Below are positions 1 through 9,251 of a stretch of 9,251 nucleotides of DNA, in pieces. Position 1 is the stretch's first letter, and each line of letters opens with the position of its first letter. Origin of the DNA: a virus (Duplodnaviria; Heunggongvirae; Uroviricota; Caudoviricetes). The notes under the pieces were generated by a model. That model saw only the letters and a program-made list of their open reading frames with translations. It made no database searches and had not been told where the DNA came from. Location of the stretch: IMG/VR virus record IMGVR_UViG_2529293246_000005; one strand, given 5' to 3'. Made by a program: the position numbers and the translations under genes.

Positions 1-258
1 ATGCAAACCGTTATTTTTGGTCGTTCGGGTTGCCCTTACTGTGTGCGTGCAAAAGATCTGGCTGAGAAATTGAGCAATGAACGCGATGATTTTCAGTATC
101 AGTATGTAGATATTCGTGCGGAAGGGATCACTAAAGAAGATCTACAACAAAAGGCAGGTAAACCCGTAGAAACCGTGCCGCAGATTTTTGTCGATCAGCA
201 ACATATCGGCGGCTATACCGATTTTGCTGCATGGGTGAAAGAAAATCTGGACGCCTGA
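1..258 (+). CDS. grxA: Glutaredoxin 1
   Basis: 85-aa ORF with CPYC active-site motif (GCPYCVRAK); translation matches my recollection of E. coli GrxA along its full length; stop at 256-258, followed by a hairpin terminator. Confidence 0.93.
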   Translation: MQTVIFGRSGCPYCVRAKDLAEKLSNERDDFQYQYVDIRAEGITKEDLQQKAGKPVETVPQIFVDQQHIGGYTDFAAWVKENLDA

Positions 259-267
259 TCGTCTGAC

Positions 268-300
268 AAGCCCTCGCGTTGAGGGCTTTACTGATTTTTT
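268..300 (+). terminator. Rho-independent terminator downstream of grxA (overlaps the 3' end of convergent ybjM)
   Basis: Stem AAGCCCTC (268-275), loop GCGTT, stem GAGGGCTT (281-288), then a T-rich tail ending in TTTTTT (295-300). Confidence 0.6.
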
Positions 301-665
301 CTGTGCTGTGGTTTAAACAAACTACTGATAAATAAGAAACACAGTGCCCCCAGCGCACACCAGAACACCGCGCTTAGTAACCATGCCAGCTCTTGCCAGA
401 ATGAGCGCGTCGGTGAAAAAAACAGCCGCATAATGAGCATCGAACAGGGTGCCGCCAGCATTGCGCCAAACAGAGGTTTCAGGACTTCTCTACGCTGTGA
501 AAAGAAGCTGGCCACTGCTCCAGGAAGAATGAAAAATAGCAAGCCGATTTCAGGATGCCCGGCAGCCCGAAAAGCGCCTTTCATGTGCGTCGCCAGAAAA
601 AGGCACACCACAATGAAGAGGACAAAACAGCAGATTGCCCCCGCCCAACGTTGTTTATGTTTCAC
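288..665 (-). CDS. ybjM: Inner membrane protein YbjM (DUF-type small multi-pass membrane protein)
   Basis: 125-aa strongly hydrophobic ORF convergent with grxA, as in the E. coli grxA-ybjM-ybjL neighbourhood; strong SD AGGAGG 5 nt upstream of a GTG start at 663-665 (minus strand). Confidence 0.8.
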   Translation of the reverse strand: MKHKQRWAGAICCFVLFIVVCLFLATHMKGAFRAAGHPEIGLLFFILPGAVASFFSQRREVLKPLFGAMLAAPCSMLIMRLFFSPTRSFWQELAWLLSAVFWCALGALCFLFISSLFKPQHRKNQ

Positions 666-934
666 TCGTTCCTCCTGACACTGCGTCTATCGAACACATT
701 TTTCGCCAGTGTGGCGTTCAGTAAGATAAAGCCGCTTCGCATTCCATGCTAATATAGGCCAACGCAATTCATATAGCCGTTGATACCTAATGTGATTACA
801 CTAGTAAAATATATTGTTACTTTACTATCGTTTAGGTGCGCTGAATGAATCTGCGCCCTGAATTCTGGTAAAAAACATTATCGTAAATTACCATTTCTTT
901 CAACAGCTTACTAGTAAACAAGAAGTTAGCCTCC

Positions 935-2620
935 GTGAATATAAACGTCGCCGAATTGTTAAATGGGAATTACATTCTGTTATTATTTGTGGTCCTCGCG
1001 CTTGGGCTATGTCTCGGAAAGTTACGACTTGGTTCGATCCAACTGGGTAATTCCATTGGCGTTTTAGTCGTATCGCTGTTATTAGGCCAACAACATTTCA
1101 GCATTAACACCGATGCGCTTAATCTTGGCTTTATGCTGTTTATTTTCTGCGTCGGGGTCGAAGCCGGACCGAACTTTTTTTCCATTTTTTTTCGCGATGG
1201 GAAAAATTACCTAATGTTAGCACTGGTGATGGTTGGCAGTGCGCTGGTGATCGCCTTAGGGTTAGGTAAGCTGTTTGGCTGGGATATTGGCCTGACGGCC
1301 GGTATGTTAGCAGGCTCTATGACGTCGACACCGGTTCTGGTCGGTGCTGGCGATACACTGCGTCATTCCGGCATGGAAAGCAGGCAGCTCTCACTGGCAC
1401 TGGATAATCTGAGCCTCGGGTATGCCTTAACCTATTTAATCGGTCTGGTGAGTTTGATTGTTGGTGCGCGTTACTTGCCGAAATTGCAGCATCAGGACTT
1501 ACAGACCAGCGCCCAGCAAATCGCCCGCGAACGTGGCCTGGACACTGATGCCAACCGTAAGGTTTATTTACCGGTGATCCGCGCCTATCGCGTCGGCCCG
1601 GAGCTGGTGGCCTGGACCGACGGCAAAAATCTGCGTGAACTGGGTATTTATCGACAAACCGGCTGCTACATTGAACGTATTCGACGTAACGGGATTCTGG
1701 CAAATCCAGACGGTGATGCCGTGCTACAAATGGGCGATGAAATAGCGTTGGTAGGCTATCCCGACGCCCATGCCCGACTCGATCCCAGCTTCCGTAACGG
1801 TAAAGAAGTTTTCGATCGTGACCTTCTCGACATGCGTATCGTCACTGAAGAAGTGGTCGTTAAAAACCATAACGCTGTAGGTAAACGTCTCGCACAACTG
1901 AAGTTGACCGATCACGGTTGCTTCCTTAACCGCGTCATTCGTAGCCAGATTGAGATGCCGATAGATGACAACGTCGTGCTTAACAAAGGTGACGTTTTAC
2001 AAGTCAGCGGTGATGCCCGTCGCGTAAAAACCATCGCCGATCGCATCGGCTTTATCTCGATTCACAGCCAGGTCACTGACCTGCTGGCATTTTGCGCCTT
2101 CTTTGTTATTGGGCTGATGATCGGGATGATCACCTTCCAGTTCAGCACATTCAGTTTCGGCATGGGGAACGCTGCCGGGTTGTTATTCGCCGGAATTATG
2201 CTGGGCTTTATGCGTGCTAACCACCCGACCTTCGGTTACATTCCGCAAGGTGCATTAAGCATGGTGAAAGAGTTCGGCTTGATGGTGTTTATGGCAGGCG
2301 TTGGTCTGAGCGCCGGTAGCGGTATTAATAACGGCCTGGGCGCGATTGGCGGTCAGATGTTGATTGCCGGATTAATTGTCAGTCTTGTGCCCGTGGTTAT
2401 CTGTTTCTTGTTCGGTGCTTATGTATTGCGAATGAACCGCGCACTGTTGTTCGGCGCAATGATGGGCGCACGCACCTGCGCGCCGGCAATGGAGATCATC
2501 AGTGATACAGCTCGCAGTAACATCCCTGCGCTGGGCTATGCGGGCACCTACGCAATCGCCAACGTCCTGCTGACGCTGGCAGGGACAATCATCGTCATGG
2601 TATGGCCAGGATTAGGATAA
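935..2620 (+). CDS. ybjL: AAE-family (aspartate:alanine exchanger-like) putative transporter YbjL with two central RCK_C/TrkA-C domains
   Basis: 561-aa ORF; hydrophobic N- and C-terminal halves flank a soluble central region (approx. aa 190-370); translation matches my recollection of E. coli YbjL ([13 protein letters not shown]...). Apparent GTG start at 935, TAA stop at 2618-2620. Confidence 0.92.
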
Positions 2621-2732
2621 AACTGAAGTTGCCCTGAAAATGAAATTTTTTTGCACAACCGCAGAACTTTTCCGCAGGGCATCAGTCTTAATTAGTGCCA
2701 CTGCTTTTCTTTGATGTCCCCATTTTGTGGAG

Positions 2733-2779
2733 CCCATCAACCCCGCCATTTCGGTTCAAGGTTGATGGGTTTTTTGTTG
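2733..2779 (+). terminator. Rho-independent terminator downstream of ybjL
   Basis: Perfect 10-bp stem CCCATCAACC (2733-2742) / GGTTGATGGG (2760-2769) with a 17-nt loop, followed by TTTTTTGTTG (2770-2779). Confidence 0.55.
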
Positions 2780-2855
2780 TCTGAAATTTATGCCGTTTAA
2801 AATCATGACGTTAGAATCACTGTTTTTTAACGATGGCGACAAAATGGCGGCAGCG

Positions 2856-3074
2856 TCAAAGAGAGAGCGCCACCTGTCCTGATTTCATTGGATGCGGCTG
2901 AACCGGATTTGACTCTTTTGGCGTTGCAATCGAACGAACAAAAGTTTCATGGGTTACAAAAGTATGGCTGCAGTTAATATTCTGGCACTGGTTGTAACGC
3001 TCTTTGGTCAATGAAGATACCTGAAAACTGCTGCGAGTATGGGCGGCACTTCCACACAGTGGGCAAATCATCAT
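2856..3074 (-). CDS. ogr: Ogr/Delta-family zinc-finger late-gene transcriptional activator (phage 186 B / P2 Ogr homologue)
   Basis: Translation MMICPLCGSAAHTRSS...KERYNQCQNINCSHTF has the C-x2-C...C-x4-C zinc-finger spacing and resembles P2 Ogr. Position directly after gpD matches P2/186 order. Start chosen at ATG 3072-3074, with a GGGAGA SD upstream on the minus strand; the ORF track's longer 83-aa start is probably an extension. Confidence 0.85.
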   Translation of the reverse strand: MMICPLCGSAAHTRSSFQVSSLTKERYNQCQNINCSHTFVTHETFVRSIATPKESNPVQPHPMKSGQVALSL

Positions 3075-3164
3075 TTTTCGAGTTCTCCCCATTTTTGCTA
3101 AATTCACAATAATGATACCGCATTATTCCATTTTGCAAACTTAAAAGTTCTCCATTGCGAAGAA

Positions 3165-4265
3165 TCATTCCATTTCGAAATCATCAATCCTCACTTCAAG
3201 CTCCAGACTGGTCGTAAAACCGTTATCCGGGCTGACGGTATGCGTCAGAGTCGTAATGGTCCATTCCGCATCATCTATCGGCTGTTTAAAACCACTGACC
3301 TTCACAGGCATTTCCGTGTAGAGATCTGCCCGCCCTTCTGCCAGTTGTAGCGAAAATGACGCAACGCCGCGTTGCAGGCGTTCCCACTGCATTTTCGCCG
3401 CTCGTTCGGCGTTGCTCCGGTTGGCATAAGTGCGATTAAGTACCAGCACGTTTTCATCCGTACCCACCAGGTAATCGCCCTGCTTCGCTTCCGGCTCTTT
3501 CTTCTGCTTCTTAGTTCTGCGCTTACGCTTCACCGTGGTGCTTTCTTTCTTCGCAGGTTCGCGGGTATGCAACCAGCTGGCAATTACGCCCGTGTAGGCT
3601 CCGCGATCTGCCAGGGTAAATCGGTGACTGTCGCCGTCCTTGCGTGTGATAGTGATCACTGGCAGAGGTTTACCAGTGGCGCTTTTGCCCTGCCCCTGCC
3701 GGATGAATAACAGATTGCCATTTTTCACCGACGCGATGGCACCGTACTGTCGCGCCAGCCGCATCAGAAAACTGCCGTCACTCTCATTAGTCTGGTCTAT
3801 ATGCTCCACGGGCTTATCCGACAGGTCTTTACCCAGTGCCATCTTCAGCTTGTGCCGCGCGGCTATTTCCTTCACCACTTCCCCGACGGTGGTCTTATGC
3901 CACGATTTTTCACGGCGGGTATTCAGCGTTTCCCGAAAATCAGCACTTCGCGCCCGGATAGTCAGGCGGTCCGGTGCGCCAGTGTGTTCAATCTCGTCCA
4001 CCGTGAATGCCCCTTTCGGGAAAAGCGGCTGCCCCTTCCAGCCCAGCGCCAGCGTAATAACCGCACCACGGCGCGGCAGCACGATTTTTCCGTCAGCGTC
4101 ATCCAGCTCCAGATCAAGCTGGTCCGCTTCAAAGCCCCGGTTGTCCGTCAGCGTCAGACTCATCAGGCGGTTATCCAGCACAGTGGTGATATCCCTGCCC
4201 TCAATACTGATGCTGAATGCGGGAGTTTTGTTGCCTTTGTTAAGCAGTTCAGAGCTGAAATTCAC
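3165..4265 (-). CDS. D: Phage tail protein D (P2 gpD-like late control/tail protein)
   Basis: 366-aa ORF; translation resembles P2 gpD-family proteins; lies between gpU and ogr as in P2/186; 4-bp ATGA overlap with the upstream gpU. Confidence 0.88.
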   Translation of the reverse strand: MNFSSELLNKGNKTPAFSISIEGRDITTVLDNRLMSLTLTDNRGFEADQLDLELDDADGKIVLPRRGAVITLALGWKGQPLFPKGAFTVDEIEHTGAPDRLTIRARSADFRETLNTRREKSWHKTTVGEVVKEIAARHKLKMALGKDLSDKPVEHIDQTNESDGSFLMRLARQYGAIASVKNGNLLFIRQGQGKSATGKPLPVITITRKDGDSHRFTLADRGAYTGVIASWLHTREPAKKESTTVKRKRRTKKQKKEPEAKQGDYLVGTDENVLVLNRTYANRSNAERAAKMQWERLQRGVASFSLQLAEGRADLYTEMPVKVSGFKQPIDDAEWTITTLTHTVSPDNGFTTSLELEVRIDDFEME

Positions 4266-4747
4266 GACAGCAGCCCTCCCACCGTTTTACTGATATCGCT
4301 TAAGGCAGACGTTGCCGTATCCTGCAGATTATTCAGTTGCGCACTGAGATCACCGAACATATCGGACAGGGATTCATCCACTCGTTTGAGCGACAGGGTG
4401 AACTCAATCCGGCGCGGCATACCGTCGCGGAAAAACTCCGTTTTAGTCTGATTCAGTCCCTCAATCACATACATGCCGTAAATCGTGCCGCTGCCTTCAA
4501 TCAGGGGCCATGCTTTCCCCTGTTCTGCCATCTGCTCCAGTGCCAGCAACGACAGCCTGCCGCCTGTTATCTCCGGCATAAGAACACCGGAAAGCGTCAG
4601 CATGTCGTTGTCCGGTCCCAGAAACTGCGTGGACGGACGACGATTTACCCGGCTGTTAGCCACATGTCGCCAGCTGCGCTGATACTGCAGTTCCTGATAC
4701 GGCACGGTGCGCAGCATAAACACGTACAATCCCAGCACCATCATCAT
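4262..4747 (-). CDS. U: Phage tail protein U (P2 gpU-like)
   Basis: 161-aa ORF starting [10 protein letters not shown]..., resembling P2 gpU; translationally coupled (ATGA overlap) to the upstream tape-measure remnant and to the downstream D. Confidence 0.85.
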   Translation of the reverse strand: MMMVLGLYVFMLRTVPYQELQYQRSWRHVANSRVNRRPSTQFLGPDNDMLTLSGVLMPEITGGRLSLLALEQMAEQGKAWPLIEGSGTIYGMYVIEGLNQTKTEFFRDGMPRRIEFTLSLKRVDESLSDMFGDLSAQLNNLQDTATSALSDISKTVGGLLS

Positions 4748-6144
4748 GCGTCGTATCCCCCCTGATCGCTGTAGTTACTCCTGGCTTTTGCCTTCAGCCT
4801 GCGTTCACGTTCATCAAGCTGGCGGGCCACCTCCCGCGCAATATCCTGCGCACTTTGTCCTGGCTGTGTCTGGATGATGATCTGCGTCGGTGCTTCAATC
4901 CGGTAAATGGGCGGCACAGTAGCTGCACGACTCACCATCGCTTCACCGCCTTTTGCGGGAAGCGCCAAAGGATGCAACGGTGGAAGCTCTGCTGGCGCGG
5001 CAGCAACACCCATCATTCCGGCGACAACGGCAGCCAGTGCAGCTGTATTTCTCCGGCTGGTCACATTTGCCGGGCCGTTAACAATTTCCGGCCCGTTTTC
5101 ACCGACGATGCCAAACTGCCCGCGCGGGATATACCCGCCGCTGTCATACATCCCCGCAAAGCCATATCCCCATGATGGAAAACCACCCGATGGCATCATC
5201 ACTTTACCGTCTGCATTCACCGTCGCAGGTTGCTGACGCGTCACGCTTTCCGGCAGTTTTGCCTTTGCGGCCTCTTTACTGACAATGCCGAGCTTCTCCA
5301 GCAACCAGGAAACGCCGGATTTCAGGGAGTCCAGCGGATGCATGACCATATTCAGCCCTTCCGCCAGTGCCTCCCCGAATCGCCGCCCCATTGCCGCTGC
5401 GCTCTGCAGTTCGGCAGAGGTCGACTTAACGGGCGTCAGCAGATCAGTAAACCAGCCCCACAGCGCCTGCACTTTGTCGCCAATCCACTGGAACACGGGC
5501 TTAAGCGGTTCGAACGCTGCACTGATGGGACCTGCCGCCGCTTTGAATCCTTCCACCACGCCACCGAGAAATGCGGTGATGGGTTGCCAGTATTTCCAGA
5601 CAACCAGCGCCACGCCCGCCAGTGCAGTAACCACAAGACCTATCGGACTGAGCAGAGCACCTAACAGACCAGATATGGCATACAGGGCAACGCGCAGCAT
5701 CGCCAGTGGACCAGATGCCAGTACTCGCAGCACCGTGCCTGCGGCGGCCAGTCCACCGCGCAGTACCGCCAGAGGATTCATAAACATCACAGCAACAGCA
5801 CGTAAACCGGATACCGCACCTGCTGCAACACGTCCGATCTCTGCAGTTGCGCTCATGACGTAATGCGGCAGTTTCTCTTTTGCAACCTCATTAATCGGTA
5901 CACATGGCAGGCAGTGAATCTGTGCCAGAAAACCATCTACCAGCGTTGAATCTTCAGTCAGATCGGTAAGCAGCCAGATTTCTGGTGCGGTTAATAAATG
6001 AGGCTGAGCTGGGTTCAGCTTGTTCCGCAGAATCTGCACATTCATGCCTGCACGTTCTGCCAGTTGCACCAGATTGTGGCGCAGTGCAAATGCACGACAG
6101 GCTTCATCAAAATGTGGATGTTTGGAAACTTGGTAATCAAACAT
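4744..6144 (-). CDS. Chimeric ORF: phage 186 CII-like N-terminus (approx. first 100-115 aa) fused in frame to a tail tape-measure (gpT-like) C-terminal region; deletion scar, likely non-functional as either protein
   Basis: N-terminus [24 protein letters not shown]...[24 protein letters not shown] matches my recollection of the 186 CII (Phage_CII family) N-terminal domain. The remainder is Gly/Ala-rich with hydrophobic segments and ends in a basic tail ([21 protein letters not shown]), sitting immediately upstream of U and D where gpT belongs. Start set at ATG 6142-6144; the ORF track uses an upstream TTG. Confidence 0.72.
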
Positions 6145-6176
6145 GGTCAATGCCTCTGATGTATTTCAGAATCGAA

Positions 6177-6398
6177 CTAATTAAGGTTTAGATTGCATTC
6201 TGAAAGCGCATCAACGGTCATGGCTGCTATGTTGATCATCACTTTTTCGCGTTTTTTATCTTTGCGCAAACGGTGACGGATAAGGCGTCCATCAGCCAAC
6301 ATGTCATTGATGGTATCGATGGACAGTCCTGTCAGCTCGCTATAGCGTTCAATAGTCACATGAGGCGTGGTAAGAGTGATTGAAATGTTAGGTCTCAT
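6177..6398 (-). CDS. apl: Apl/Cox-like small DNA-binding protein (excisionase / lytic-switch repressor-type)
   Basis: 73-aa ORF directly upstream of the cII-like gene and divergent from cI, the 186 apl position. Translation ([35 protein letters not shown]) has an HTH-like segment resembling Apl/Cox-family proteins. GAGGA SD about 10 nt upstream. Confidence 0.65.
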
Positions 6399-6523
6399 GA
6401 TGCAACATTCCTCGTTTAATGATGATTAATCAGGACGAATACGGATCGTTTGTATTTTGTGAACACCATAAACATACGATCGCACTATGAAATCGTCAAG
6501 ATAAAAGTTCACTTGGAGTGACC
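6399..6523. promoter_or_regulatory. Immunity switch region between divergent apl and cI (predicted lytic and lysogenic promoters and operator sites)
   Basis: 125-bp AT-rich divergent intergenic region. It contains a 10-bp inverted repeat with one mismatch, GATCGTTTGT (6444-6453) / ACATACGATC (6472-6481), and a TTAAT-gatg-ATTAA palindrome-like element (6416-6429). Confidence 0.5.
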
Positions 6524-7093
6524 ATGAATTTGGAGAAAGGCGGACGAGGCGCTATAGAGCGCATGGTAGAAGCTTATGGATTCAAAACTCGACAGGCGTT
6601 GTGCGATCATTTAGGAATCTCTAAAAGTACACTCGCTACACGCTACATGCGTGACTCATTCCCAGCAGAATGGGTAATCCAGTGCGCCCTTGAAACGGGC
6701 ACCTCGCTTAATTGGCTCACAACTGGACATGGTTCAAAGCAAACTTCAGGTAATACAAATACGATGGAAGTTGCTAAATATGTATTATCTGATGGTGCCT
6801 TGCGTGAAGACGGTTTTTATATTTTTGATAAGGAATTTCTACCCTCTACGTTTAAAAAACCTTTTGTCATCACAGATAACAATTCTGAATTTATTTGTGA
6901 TAAAGAATTTGATGATATACGTGATGGTAAATGGGTAATAAGTATTGATGGCGAAATAACAATCCGCGACATTACTCGTTTACCCGGTGGAAGAATCTTC
7001 GTTGAAGGTGGAAACAGATCCTTCGAGTGCAAGATAGAAGATGTTGAAATAATTGGAAAAATTATAAGTTTAACAATTAAGTACGTTAGGTAA
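6524..7093 (+). CDS. cI: Phage 186-type CI immunity repressor
   Basis: Translation (IERMVEAYGFKTRQALCDHLGISKSTLATRY...CALETGTSLNWLTTGHG...ITIRDITRLPGG...FECKIEDVEIIGKI) resembles 186 CI, with an N-terminal HTH and a C-terminal oligomerisation domain. Start chosen at ATG 6524 with GGAG 5 nt upstream; the ORF track starts at GTG 6518. Confidence 0.85.
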   Translation: MNLEKGGRGAIERMVEAYGFKTRQALCDHLGISKSTLATRYMRDSFPAEWVIQCALETGTSLNWLTTGHGSKQTSGNTNTMEVAKYVLSDGALREDGFYIFDKEFLPSTFKKPFVITDNNSEFICDKEFDDIRDGKWVISIDGEITIRDITRLPGGRIFVEGGNRSFECKIEDVEIIGKIISLTIKYVR

Positions 7094-7108
7094 TACCGGG
7101 AGGAAACT

Positions 7109-7300
7109 ATGCTTGGTAAGGTATTTTTTGTGGTTTTATCATGTTCTTTGTTATTAAACCCACTAACTACCTATGCTAAAAATTATCCTTGTTCTGGGAA
7201 AAAGGGAGGTGTCTCTCACTGTACCTCCGATGGAAAGTTCGTTTGCAATGATGGAACTATTAGTAAATCAAAAAAAATCTGTACTAAAAACTCGCGATAA
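7109..7300 (+). CDS. Small secreted cysteine-rich protein of unknown function (putative moron)
   Basis: 63-aa ORF with a strong SD (GGGAGG, 5-nt spacer) only 15 nt after the cI stop. The N-terminus [23 protein letters not shown] looks like a type I signal peptide. The predicted mature part is about 40 aa, Lys-rich, with four Cys. Visibly AT-rich relative to flanking phage genes. Confidence 0.6.
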
Positions 7301-7486
7301 TTTTTGCTTTTATATCTGCGCCTAATATAACAATGAGCCGCAGGCTAACCGCAAAAGTCACATACTCACATAGCAAAAAATAGCCAACTTCATTATGGCT
7401 TCAGTGAGATGTATGGTCGCAAGATTTCATACATTGACACTGGTTATACATACAGTAAAAATGCTCTCTATTGGAGGGCATTTTTT

Positions 7487-8518
7487 ATGGCAGTACGAAA
7501 ACTCACCACAGGAAAATGGCTTTGCGAATGTTACCCCGCCGGACGTAGTGGGCGTCGTGTGCGTAAACAATTCGCCACCAAAGGCGAAGCACTGGCTTTT
7601 GAGCGTCACACGATGGAAGAAACCGAAGCAAAGCCCTGGCTGGGCGAATCAGTAGATCGTCGAACCCTGAAAGACGTGGTTGAGCTATGGTTCAAACTAC
7701 ATGGTAAATCTCTGACTGCTGGGCAGCATGTCTATGACAAATTGCTGCTGATGGTTGACGCTCTGGGCAATCCCCTTGCAACCGATCTCACATCTAAAAT
7801 GTTTGCCCATTATCGAGATAAACGACTGACAGGTGAGATCTACTTCAGCGAGAAATGGAAGAAAGGGGCCAGCCCGGTCACCATTAACCTGGAGCAAAGC
7901 TATCTAAGTAGTGTTTTTAGCGAACTATCCCGCCTGGGCGAATGGTCGTATCCAAACCCACTGGAGAACATGCGAAAATTCACCATCGCAGAAAAAGAGA
8001 TGGCATGGCTTACCCATGAGCAGATTGTTGAACTGCTGGATGATTGCAAACGTCAGGACCCAATTCTGGCACTGGTAGTCAAGATATGCTTAAGCACAGG
8101 CGCACGCTGGCGAGAAGCAATAAACCTTACCCGATCACAGGTGACCAAATACCGAATTACCTTTGTAAGAACGAAGGGGAAGAAAAACAGAAGCATCCCT
8201 ATCAGTAAAGAGCTTTATGAAGAGATCATGGCGCTTGATGGGTTCAATTTCTTCACAGACTGCTATTTTCAATTTTTATCCGTGATGGAAAAAACGTCTA
8301 TCGTGCTCCCTCGCGGTCAACTTACACACGTTCTGCGTCATACGTTTGCGGCGCATTTCATGATGTCGGGTGGAAACATCCTTGCTTTGCAAAAAATCCT
8401 CGGACATCACGACATTAAAATGACTATGCGTTATGCTCATCTATCACCTGATCACTTAGAGACAGCTCTTCGTTTCAATCCACTAGCAACTTTGGATGTT
8501 ACTAAATCAGATTCTTAA
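7487..8518 (+). CDS. int: Tyrosine site-specific integrase (P2/186 Int family)
   Basis: Translation from MAVRKLTTGKWLCECYPAGRSGRRVRKQF resembles P2 Int. Catalytic signature present: STGARWREA (Arg), HVLRHTFA (H-x-x-R), MRYAHL (Tyr nucleophile). Start at ATG 7487 with a GGAGGG SD; the ORF track's start at 7409 is an upstream extension. Confidence 0.9.
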   Translation: MAVRKLTTGKWLCECYPAGRSGRRVRKQFATKGEALAFERHTMEETEAKPWLGESVDRRTLKDVVELWFKLHGKSLTAGQHVYDKLLLMVDALGNPLATDLTSKMFAHYRDKRLTGEIYFSEKWKKGASPVTINLEQSYLSSVFSELSRLGEWSYPNPLENMRKFTIAEKEMAWLTHEQIVELLDDCKRQDPILALVVKICLSTGARWREAINLTRSQVTKYRITFVRTKGKKNRSIPISKELYEEIMALDGFNFFTDCYFQFLSVMEKTSIVLPRGQLTHVLRHTFAAHFMMSGGNILALQKILGHHDIKMTMRYAHLSPDHLETALRFNPLATLDVTKSDS

Positions 8519-8528
8519 AGGTTCAAGC

Positions 8529-9251
8529 ATGGTTAAGTTTTTGTTTCAATTCCCAATATTCGACTTCTCCTTAACATTTGATATTATCGAGACGTTAATC
8601 ACTCATAGCGAATCATCAATCGCTAAGGGCATAGCAGAATATAAAGACAAAGGACCTGAAGAATATATAATTGAAATATCTCCGGAAGATGGTGTATATC
8701 AGTCAATTGATCATTACATGGGACTCACCAGCTCATCGCTAGATCTCGATGAAATGTTTTTAGAATACTACCCAAGTATTATCCGCAGGTCAGTATTCTT
8801 AACTATATTCGGAATTTTTGAGCACGAAATAGAAAAATTCTGTAACAACTTTGCTAATAGACATCATTCTCCTATAAATGTTTCAGATCTCAAAGGAAGT
8901 GGATTTGAGAGGAGCCATCTATTTATCAAAAAAATGATAGGGATGAAGTCAACATCCCACTATTCGAATATCAAAAAAATAACAAAATTAAGAAACAGTT
9001 GTGCGCATAATGATGCAAAATACTTAGAAAACGATGGGCAAAATATTAAAAGCATTATTGAACTTATAGAAAAATATCCTGATTTTTTTAAAAAAGATGG
9101 AAAACAGGTCCTATTTATGGGGGGCTCGTTAAGCATGATCTTGAACTCATTCAAAGAGTATCTTTCTGATGTTGAAAGAGCCTTAGATGAATTCGAAAAA
9201 CAAAGCACTAGTGGCGACAAAGTGGCGGCAGCGGTTGGCATTACCCCGTAA
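8529..9251 (+). CDS. Hypothetical protein with an HEPN-like R-x4-H motif (candidate RNase toxin / abortive-infection-type cargo); function unverified
   Basis: 240-aa AT-rich ORF beginning 10 nt after the int stop on the same strand; AAGG SD-like element upstream of ATG 8529. Motif K-L-R-N-S-C-A-H at nt 8985-9008 (Arg codon 8991-8993, His codon 9006-9008). Sequence looks predominantly helical. I do not recognise it as any characterised protein. Confidence 0.55.
   Translation: MVKFLFQFPIFDFSLTFDIIETLITHSESSIAKGIAEYKDKGPEEYIIEISPEDGVYQSIDHYMGLTSSSLDLDEMFLEYYPSIIRRSVFLTIFGIFEHEIEKFCNNFANRHHSPINVSDLKGSGFERSHLFIKKMIGMKSTSHYSNIKKITKLRNSCAHNDAKYLENDGQNIKSIIELIEKYPDFFKKDGKQVLFMGGSLSMILNSFKEYLSDVERALDEFEKQSTSGDKVAAAVGITP

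Follow-up and report, generated by a model that had tools for sequence, protein, structure and literature searches.

Immunity and integration genes in a deletion remnant of an Escherichia coli P2/186-type prophage

Comparison of the remnant with described prophages

The cryptic prophages of Escherichia coli K-12, including e14, Rac, CP4-57, and others, are remnants left by deletion that have retained an integrase, in many cases together with a repressor, and some of them can still excise or exclude phages. The viral record IMGVR_UViG_2529293246_000005, analyzed here over its full 9,251 nucleotides (termed the window), contains a remnant of a P2/186-type prophage (Peduoviridae) in the ybjL-rcdA intergenic region that retains the gene for the CI immunity repressor (cI), a Cox/Apl-like gene (apl), the divergent switch region between them, and the integrase gene (int). 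The K-12 elements are of old date, occur throughout the K-12 lineage, and have phenotypes on record, whereas the remnant is recent, and neither it nor its exact junction was found in any of 5,426 complete E. coli genomes. It is ordinary, one more cryptic prophage of a type common in E. coli that was formed by a recent deletion, and dozens of genomes have RefSeq proteins that match its own exactly or almost exactly; the breakpoint in cII is its only unusual feature. The preferred reading, held with good confidence, is that the window contains the lysogeny end of such a prophage after one recent deletion of ~27.6 kb, that the surviving genes are intact because of this recency, and that CI would repress an element now probably locked in the chromosome.

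Coliphage 186 (NC_001317) shares with the remnant the order and orientation of int and cI followed by the divergent apl and cII, the two-domain CI family and fold template (2FJR), CII and Int proteins with 57 and 55% identity, respectively, an Int arm-type repeat resembling the 186 consensus, and a cargo open reading frame (ORF) between int and attP comparable to 186 orf69. It differs in that the two CI proteins are only 32% identical and hence heteroimmune, the Cox/Apl-like protein of the remnant lacks significant similarity to 186 Apl, and the bacterial attachment site attB lies between ybjL and rcdA compared to the tRNA-Ile gene used by 186. The remnant also has an extra small gene between cI and int, and it lacks tum and the C-terminal third of CII. 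The P2-like prophage of E. coli HS (rcdA/ogr; “Phollow” imaging) has the same attB, immunity type, and CI residues 1–93 as the remnant; it is active and SOS/Tum-inducible, forms virions, and lysogenizes a cured strain with a rebuilt attB (bioRxiv 10.1101/2024.06.12.598711). The prophages of strains F437 and DSM 103246, which resemble that of HS in attB, immunity type, and the match of CI residues 1–93, also encode the same 343-amino acid (aa) Int and the same HEPN-like cargo protein at 99.6% DNA identity. In contrast to the remnant, the HS, F437, and DSM 103246 prophages keep all replication, lysis, and virion genes in addition to tum. The defective P2-like prophage of BL21, which bears retron Ec86, shares the site, the immunity type, and the exact cII-side boundary with the remnant, but its deletion spans no more than 3,358 bp, with one end in cII and the other midway through gene A; it keeps its late genes and carries a different cargo after int.

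The deletion and the recency of the retained module

Alignment to the full-length F437 prophage (locus L014; ~34 kb, same attB) placed window positions 1–5813 on L014 952–6764 and positions 5807–9251 on L014 34353–37797, with ~27.6 kb missing between the tape-measure gene T and cII. The loss includes the rest of cII (from codon 112), fil, the DUF5347 and DUF2732 genes, traR, dam, and replication gene A, together with accessory genes, cos, the portal, terminase, capsid/head, lysis, baseplate, fiber, sheath, and tube genes, E, and the 5' two-thirds of T, of which the 3' 1.07 kb is kept. A dhr-like gene is also among the deleted genes, as is tum, which codes for a DinI-like antirepressor and lies at F437 29289–29522 within the missing 6765–34352. 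This LexA-controlled gene, the mark of an SOS-inducible prophage, is therefore not present in the remnant. The first-pass annotation, made from the letters and their ORFs, had described the structural and replication genes as gone, which is correct for the ~27.6 kb and does not apply to ogr, D, U, and the 3' part of T.

The junction is a perfect 7-nt match (CCGGATA) if the parental cII allele was the CCGGATA variant, which was seen in ZYB62 and several viral contigs. Across it, the reading frame of cII runs on after codon 111 into the final ~355 codons of T, such that CII residues 1–111 (5814–6144) are followed by the T fragment (4744–5806). The fusion ORF is listed with 468 aa (4744–6150) from a TTG at 6150, compared to 466 aa from the ATG, and matched Pfam Phage_CP76 over residues 12–113 and tape-measure PHROGs over residues 99–468. 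The fusion protein was absent from the protein collection, and activation of the establishment promoter is not expected from CII(1–111), without its C-terminal third and joined to a hydrophobic T fragment. A similar in-frame CII-T fusion, with 420 aa and another T breakpoint, was observed in LR-27. The remnant is also a mosaic, as eight of its 12 differences from DSM 103246 fall in the 337-bp cII fragment (5814–6150) and its ogr-to-T side (1–5813) has 99.8% identity to prophages, for example that of strain 2452, whose cI-int allele is a different one; from this pattern of identity the parent phage was a recombinant.

Positions 6151–9251 differ from the complete-looking prophage of DSM 103246 at four of 3,101 bases, all of them outside apl, the switch region, and the cargo gene, and 5807–9251 has the 99.6% DNA identity to intact prophages given above. 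The two changes in cI are both replacements: G104E, which also occurs in the HS and B alleles, and A166S, a conservative change in the C-terminal domain that is absent from the other four alleles compared. The full-length F437 prophage, at the same site, encodes the same Apl, Orf63, Int, and cargo proteins, and its CI differs by G104E plus A166S. The deletion is considered recent because the module is only four substitutions from intact prophages, and since it is nearly identical to them its intactness needs no selection and is the null expectation. Judged from its sequence, the module is very likely functional, but its intactness says nothing about selection.

The first-pass annotation had taken selective retention of the repressor as a sign of domestication. 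In this scenario the host would keep cI (and int) by purifying selection because resident CI protects against homoimmune P2/186-type superinfection. Comparison with 14 other remnants of this immunity type revealed intact apl, cI, and orf63 in all 14 and intact int in 13, with a stop at int codon 51 in the sister remnant of strain E3. Intactness in every case fits selection but equally a recent origin, and the remnant loci were found with cI-int or cII probes, which biases the sample toward elements keeping these genes. At least 80% of the module is carried by 594 of the 5,426 complete genomes (~11%), so homoimmune phages should be common, and the ybjL-attR-ogr junction that marks the prophage end occurs in 1,110 genomes, close to the 1,134 with int matches at any locus and not just at ybjL-rcdA. 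Both observations would suit domestication. Nevertheless, this interpretation is unlikely, as four substitutions in 3.1 kb leave no time for decay, no complete genome shares the remnant, BL21 shows that such remnants arise within decades, one remnant carries a broken int, and the breakpoint in cII recurs as a hot spot (see below). A defective allele inherited across a clade, one mark of a domesticated prophage, was not found among the complete genomes, and nothing here shows the other mark, purifying selection after inactivation. The other copy of the window's junction at T 6764, in IMG/VR locus L108, belongs to an element with a different ogr and int. The case cautions against reading domestication into the intact regulatory genes of a remnant separated from live phages by few substitutions.

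Under the preferred reading of a recent deletion, a single event mediated by the CCGGATA microhomology would have removed the DNA from cII codon 112 through the middle of T. What survives to the left of the junction is ogr-D-U-'T and to its right cII'-apl-cI-orf63-int-cargo; attR is intact, as are the Int arm regions of both sides. If the switch works as in 186, CI expressed from a lysogenic promoter near or inside the start of apl would repress the facing lytic promoter and could thereby silence apl and the CII-T fusion. The cI, orf63, int, and HEPN-like genes lie head to tail on one strand and may be co-transcribed. The element is probably locked in because tum was deleted: SOS could not lift repression, Apl would not be made, and the remnant would be non-inducible and non-excising, staying put although Int, attR, and both arm regions look competent. 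As a by-product, resident CI would be predicted to block superinfecting phages with the same operators. From sequence comparison this immunity is probably effective only against phages of its own repressor type, excluding 186 itself, whose CI at 32% identity does not have the same immunity specificity; no CI with more than 54.6% identity was found among 50,697 phage records of sequenced isolates. The homoimmunity against 186-like phages suggested in the first-pass annotation is accordingly plausible for the element's own immunity type and fails for 186.

Retention of cI might alternatively reflect addiction, in which the loss of CI would be harmful since the derepressed lytic promoter would express Apl, the CII-T fusion, U, D, and possibly Ogr, and this expression could be toxic or trigger excision. 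Consistent with such an effect, the in-frame fusion ORF follows apl directly, long segments of its tape-measure part are hydrophobic, and Int and the att sites within the window look intact. The argument is purely inferential and other remnants keep cI despite out-of-frame or much shorter junctions, which makes addiction very improbable.

Repressor, integrase, and cargo genes

CI matched Pfam PF07022 (Phage_CI_repr; E = 2.8e-33) and PF16452 (Phage_CI_C; E = 9.5e-29), both passing the curated cut-offs, with the N-terminal helix-turn-helix and C-terminal oligomerization domains of 186-type CI present over its full length and residues 10–183 aligning to 186 CI (PDB 2FJR; E = 1e-31). The five alleles examined, that of the HS prophage among them, do not differ in residues 1–93, which include the DNA-binding domain, and an alternative GTG start at 6518 would give 191 aa instead of the 189 aa from the ATG. 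The Cox/Apl-like protein matched PHROG 575 (“Cox-like excisionase and repressor”; E = 6e-31), had no Pfam, NCBIfam, or PDB match, and aligned with 186 Apl over just 8 of 20 residues. The size and position of its gene fit the first gene of a lytic transcript divergent from cI, and the protein is 100% identical to WP_001247707.1 of intact prophages. The E-scores of the family matches were far beyond chance. The view that cI, the apl-like gene, the switch, and int are intact and full length was therefore upheld by confirmed ORFs and strong Pfam, PHROG, and PDB matches, and the good ribosome-binding sites noted with it were visible for cI, orf63, and int (GGAG or GGAGG, 7–10 nt upstream).

Within the switch region, a promoter scan identified a minus-strand candidate for the lytic promoter (-35 TTGACG at 6499–6494, a 17-nt spacer, and -10 TATGTT at 6476–6471; 9/12 sigma-70 match), with a predicted transcription start near 6464. 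Its -10 overlaps an 18-nt imperfect inverted repeat (6444–6481) that is a candidate CI operator, and direct repeats occupy 6392–6402 and 6414–6424. A weak candidate lysogenic promoter was found by hand (TTGAAA at 6380–6385, a 17-nt spacer, and CAACAT at 6403–6408), with a predicted plus-strand start near 6415. The operator half-sites are unique within the window, and further CI operators elsewhere, for example at the ogr promoter, where 186 has one, were rejected as the pR half-site motif occurs only at 6444–6481. The switch is identical to that of DSM 103246 and differs at two bases from that of HS. No alignment to Klebsiella phage KP12 was obtained for window positions 6413–7426 (switch and cI), the homology stopping at 6412 on the apl side and restarting at 7427, with the flanking apl and int sequences aligning. 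An unaligned block between aligning flanks is the expected signature of an immunity-specific module, and the switch and cI appear to be one such swapped block.

Int matched Pfam Int_N and Phage_integrase and aligned to the catalytic domain of the HP1 integrase (1AIH; E = 2e-56) and to the integrase entry 5C6K (E = 7e-46), with the alignments reaching residue 334 of 343. All catalytic residues are conserved (R207, the TKGKKNR hairpin at 229–235, H281, R284, H307, and Y316), the complete set being seen in the 1AIH and 5C6K alignments as had been anticipated, while the int start earlier given at 7409 was replaced by the ATG at 7487 (343 aa). A C-terminal truncation of Int by a 719-bp insertion was rejected as a defect: the conserved domain ends with NPLA (residue 334), an end common to HP1, entry 5C6K, and 186 Int, and a 350-aa form of Int just reads on into the attP arm, with the 343-aa form present in full-length prophages.

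The attR core and the P'-arm sites (2765–2852) are present along with the P-arm sites (9210–9233), where the P'-arm repeat type recurs; the repeat resembles the 186 arm consensus YAYCGCCAYTY. Homology to phage KP12 begins at 2765 and attP/attB similarity reaches ~2791, with empty-site genomes such as K-12 aligning up to window position 2791, and a 14-nt direct repeat between attR and attL was identified in G3/10. In relatives, rcdA lies ~100 bp past the arm sites. A tRNA-linked attachment as in 186 was ruled out, as the window has no tRNA gene and attB is the ybjL-rcdA intergenic region. The int/cargo end of the DSM 103246 prophage (L005 20835–21734) abuts a truncated TonB-dependent receptor gene next to ptsG and not rcdA, which implies either that this prophage type has a second integration site or that the chromosome was rearranged through the prophage.

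Several points weigh against the preferred reading of a recently deleted, CI-repressed, and locked-in element. Purifying selection would likewise yield an intact cI in all 14 independent remnants. The window ends short of the attL core, which was observed in relatives only. The Cox/Apl-like identity comes from a PHROG profile only, the scan threshold was reached by the lytic promoter only, and promoter-like sites in the region are no more numerous than in shuffled sequence, such that the lysogenic promoter and the CI operators are putative elements deduced from the DNA.

The 719-bp insertion (8491–9209) between int codon ~336 and the attP arm repeats carries the HEPN-like gene, the last 13 codons of which reuse the 3' end of the ancestral, longer int frame. 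Its product contains RNSCAH, an Rx4H motif, and gave weak matches only, including sub-threshold similarity to Pfam HEPN_RiboL-PSP (E = 0.005; 17.2 bits against a cut-off of 28.4), PADLOC HEC-01A (E = 0.005), and PHROG 21382 (E = 3e-9). The gene was identified in 25 E. coli genomes, including full-length prophages, and its product had no match in sequenced phages. The slot after int holds an 89-aa ORF, a 110-aa ORF, a Panacea-domain gene, or nothing in relatives, and the cI-int slot, which here contains orf63 (PHROG 6000, E = 5e-34; NCBIfam NF007463, E = 4e-34), is likewise variable with an ATPase (KP12), a KAP NTPase, or a DUF4041 or GmrSD protein. The int-att and int-primase positions are listed as minor defense hotspots of P2-like phages (2026 prophage survey, PMC13586616). 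These hypervariable slots, their listing as hotspots, and the Rx4H motif with its weak HEPN and PADLOC matches could suggest that the block is kept for an anti-phage or fitness role of the HEPN-like gene and/or the YdcA-like protein, with cI and int as operon passengers. Such a role is a highly improbable cause of retention, given that all defense-family matches lie below curated thresholds, the HEPN-like protein has no counterpart in sequenced phages, the recency argument holds here too, and the same architecture occurs in remnants with other cargo or none. The remaining features of the window are given in Table 1; the ogr product is 54% identical to 186 B, and the gene is also annotated in relatives.

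Table 1. Positions of genes and sites in the 9,251-nt window.
Feature	Position	Strand	Evidence or remark
grxA	1–258		E. coli core gene
ybjM	288–665	minus	E. coli core gene
ybjL	935–2620		E. coli core gene
Remnant of P2/186-type prophage	~2765 to window end
attR core	2765–2794		ATGGGTTTTTTGTT, repeat common to attR and attL
Int arm-type sites, P' arm (two)	2832–2852		GATGGCGACA, AAATGGCGGCA
ogr, late-gene activator, Ogr/Delta zinc finger, 72 aa	2856–3074	minus	Pfam Ogr_Delta, E = 7e-22
Tail gene D, intact	3165–4265	minus	Annotated as “phage late control D family protein” in relatives
Tail gene U, intact	4262–4747	minus	Annotated as phage tail protein in relatives
CII-T fusion ORF, in frame, 466 aa	4744–6144	minus	Native ATG at 6144
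Deletion junction, CCGGATA microhomology	5807–5813		Boundary 5813/5814; cII side TA, then CCGCACCTGC
Cox/Apl-like excisionase and lytic-switch repressor gene, 73 aa	6177–6398	minus	PHROG 575
Switch region	6399–6523		Promoter scan and repeats
cI, immunity repressor of the 186-CI family, 189 aa	6524–7093	plus	Pfam and PDB
orf63, YdcA-family signal-peptide Cys-rich protein, 63 aa	7109–7300	plus	PHROG 6000, NF007463
int, tyrosine integrase of the P2/HP1 family, 343 aa	7487–8518	plus	Pfam, PDB alignments
HEPN-like cargo gene, 240 aa	8529–9251	plus	Stop codon is the last base of the window
Int arm-type sites, P arm (two)	9210–9233		AGTGGCGACA, AAGTGGCGGCA

The recurrent breakpoint in cII

Comparison with an intact reference revealed that the cII-side breakpoint is identical in a series of remnants. 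It reads ...CC(A/G)GA TA followed by CCGCACCTGC, falls after cII nucleotide 333 in codon 111, and lies at the cII stretch GGTGCGGTATCTGG. Different left partners, at least 16 of them, adjoin the boundary between TA and CCGCACCTGC in unrelated strains and phage lineages, with several immunity types and two integration sites. The left partner in the window is T at L014 6764 (cII side L014 34358), and others include T 6631 in LR-27, U 5520 in ETEC1706, D 4872 in A134_1EC and ET896, D 4228 in E3, sheath 10601 in HL15, an inverted capsid-region piece in BE2-5, accessory genes near the portal gene in IAL7254, gene A in BL21 and its derivatives, and an IS66 fragment in ECL27829, whose prophage is a different P2-like element with another immunity type and integrase at another chromosomal site. 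Loci with this boundary are L002, L010, L011, L013, L015, L018, L019, L022, and L032 and furthermore L063, L073, L101, L102, L104, L108, L110, and L176, with six further partners obtained from metagenomes and IMG/VR by exact-match scans with the 28-mer to the right of the boundary. A 71-nt probe placed across the site gave 941 matches in the complete E. coli genomes, of which 58 have their first base at the boundary, and the listed examples of these 58 include laboratory strains derived from BL21. Native cII is found at the boundary in E. coli B ATCC 11303 and REL606, and the 3,358-bp deletion of BL21 therefore arose in the laboratory lineage.

The length of the junction microhomology varies between 2 nt (TA) and 12 nt. 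T contains a site, CCAGATAC with the boundary before GGCA (L014 6620–6631), that matches the cII site at 11 of 12 positions, corresponds to a region deleted from the window, and is reused with four partners (LR-27, BE2-5, the metagenome locus L032, and the IMG/VR locus L110), which suggests that the motif itself is break-prone. In 186 cII, the flanks have diverged, although the DNA sequence of the core GGTGCGGTATCTG is conserved. Some remnants appear to result from second-step deletions that combine an older junction with the cII site, including A134_1EC from an L9-type junction via TACCG and, likewise apparently sequential, E3 from a ZYB62-type and HL15 from a BL21-type junction.

Several explanations for the shared boundary were considered and rejected. 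Sixteen or more left partners, two integration sites, and several immunity types are incompatible with identity by descent, and an IS-mediated adjacent deletion does not fit junctions that have no IS except for the one IS66 fragment. No Chi sites occur nearby, DNA folding at the boundary is no better than in shuffled sequences with the predicted stem 13 nt away, and no likeness to the 186 ori nick site was visible by eye. A by-eye check also gave no convincing Type IIS, Dcm/Vsr, EcoKI/EcoBI, XerCD/dif, or IHF sites, nor DnaA boxes, REP-like half sites, or topoisomerase I or gyrase consensus sequences.

The hot spot in cII is regarded as real. It accounts for the exact start of the surviving block, and its recurrence makes the retained apl-cI-int architecture a recurrent outcome and not a peculiarity of one strain. 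One tentative and rather doubtful possibility is that GGTGCGG-TA-TCTGG (codon 111), together with the nearly identical T site, forms a sequence-specific fragile or cleavage site that repeatedly turns P2/186-type prophages into locked-in cassettes of repressor, integrase, and cargo. Constitutively expressed Int cleaving the pseudo-core TATCTGG (cf. TATCTAA in the attL sequence) is a speculative cause, as is stalling of replication with template switching at the site. On this view, a directed decay pathway and not random erosion would have produced the retained module, and decay through a nucleotide-precise hot spot that spares the immunity-integrase end would explain the commonness of such cassettes. 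BL21 compared to E. coli B, or induced HS lysogens, would then constitute a tractable system for prophage inactivation. In addition, the early-region breakpoints of G3/10 (L001 ~11124) and TUM10008 (L020 7346) lie within 4 nt of each other with different partners, at L014 33338–33342 in traR near the DUF2732 gene boundary, and may represent another minor hot spot.

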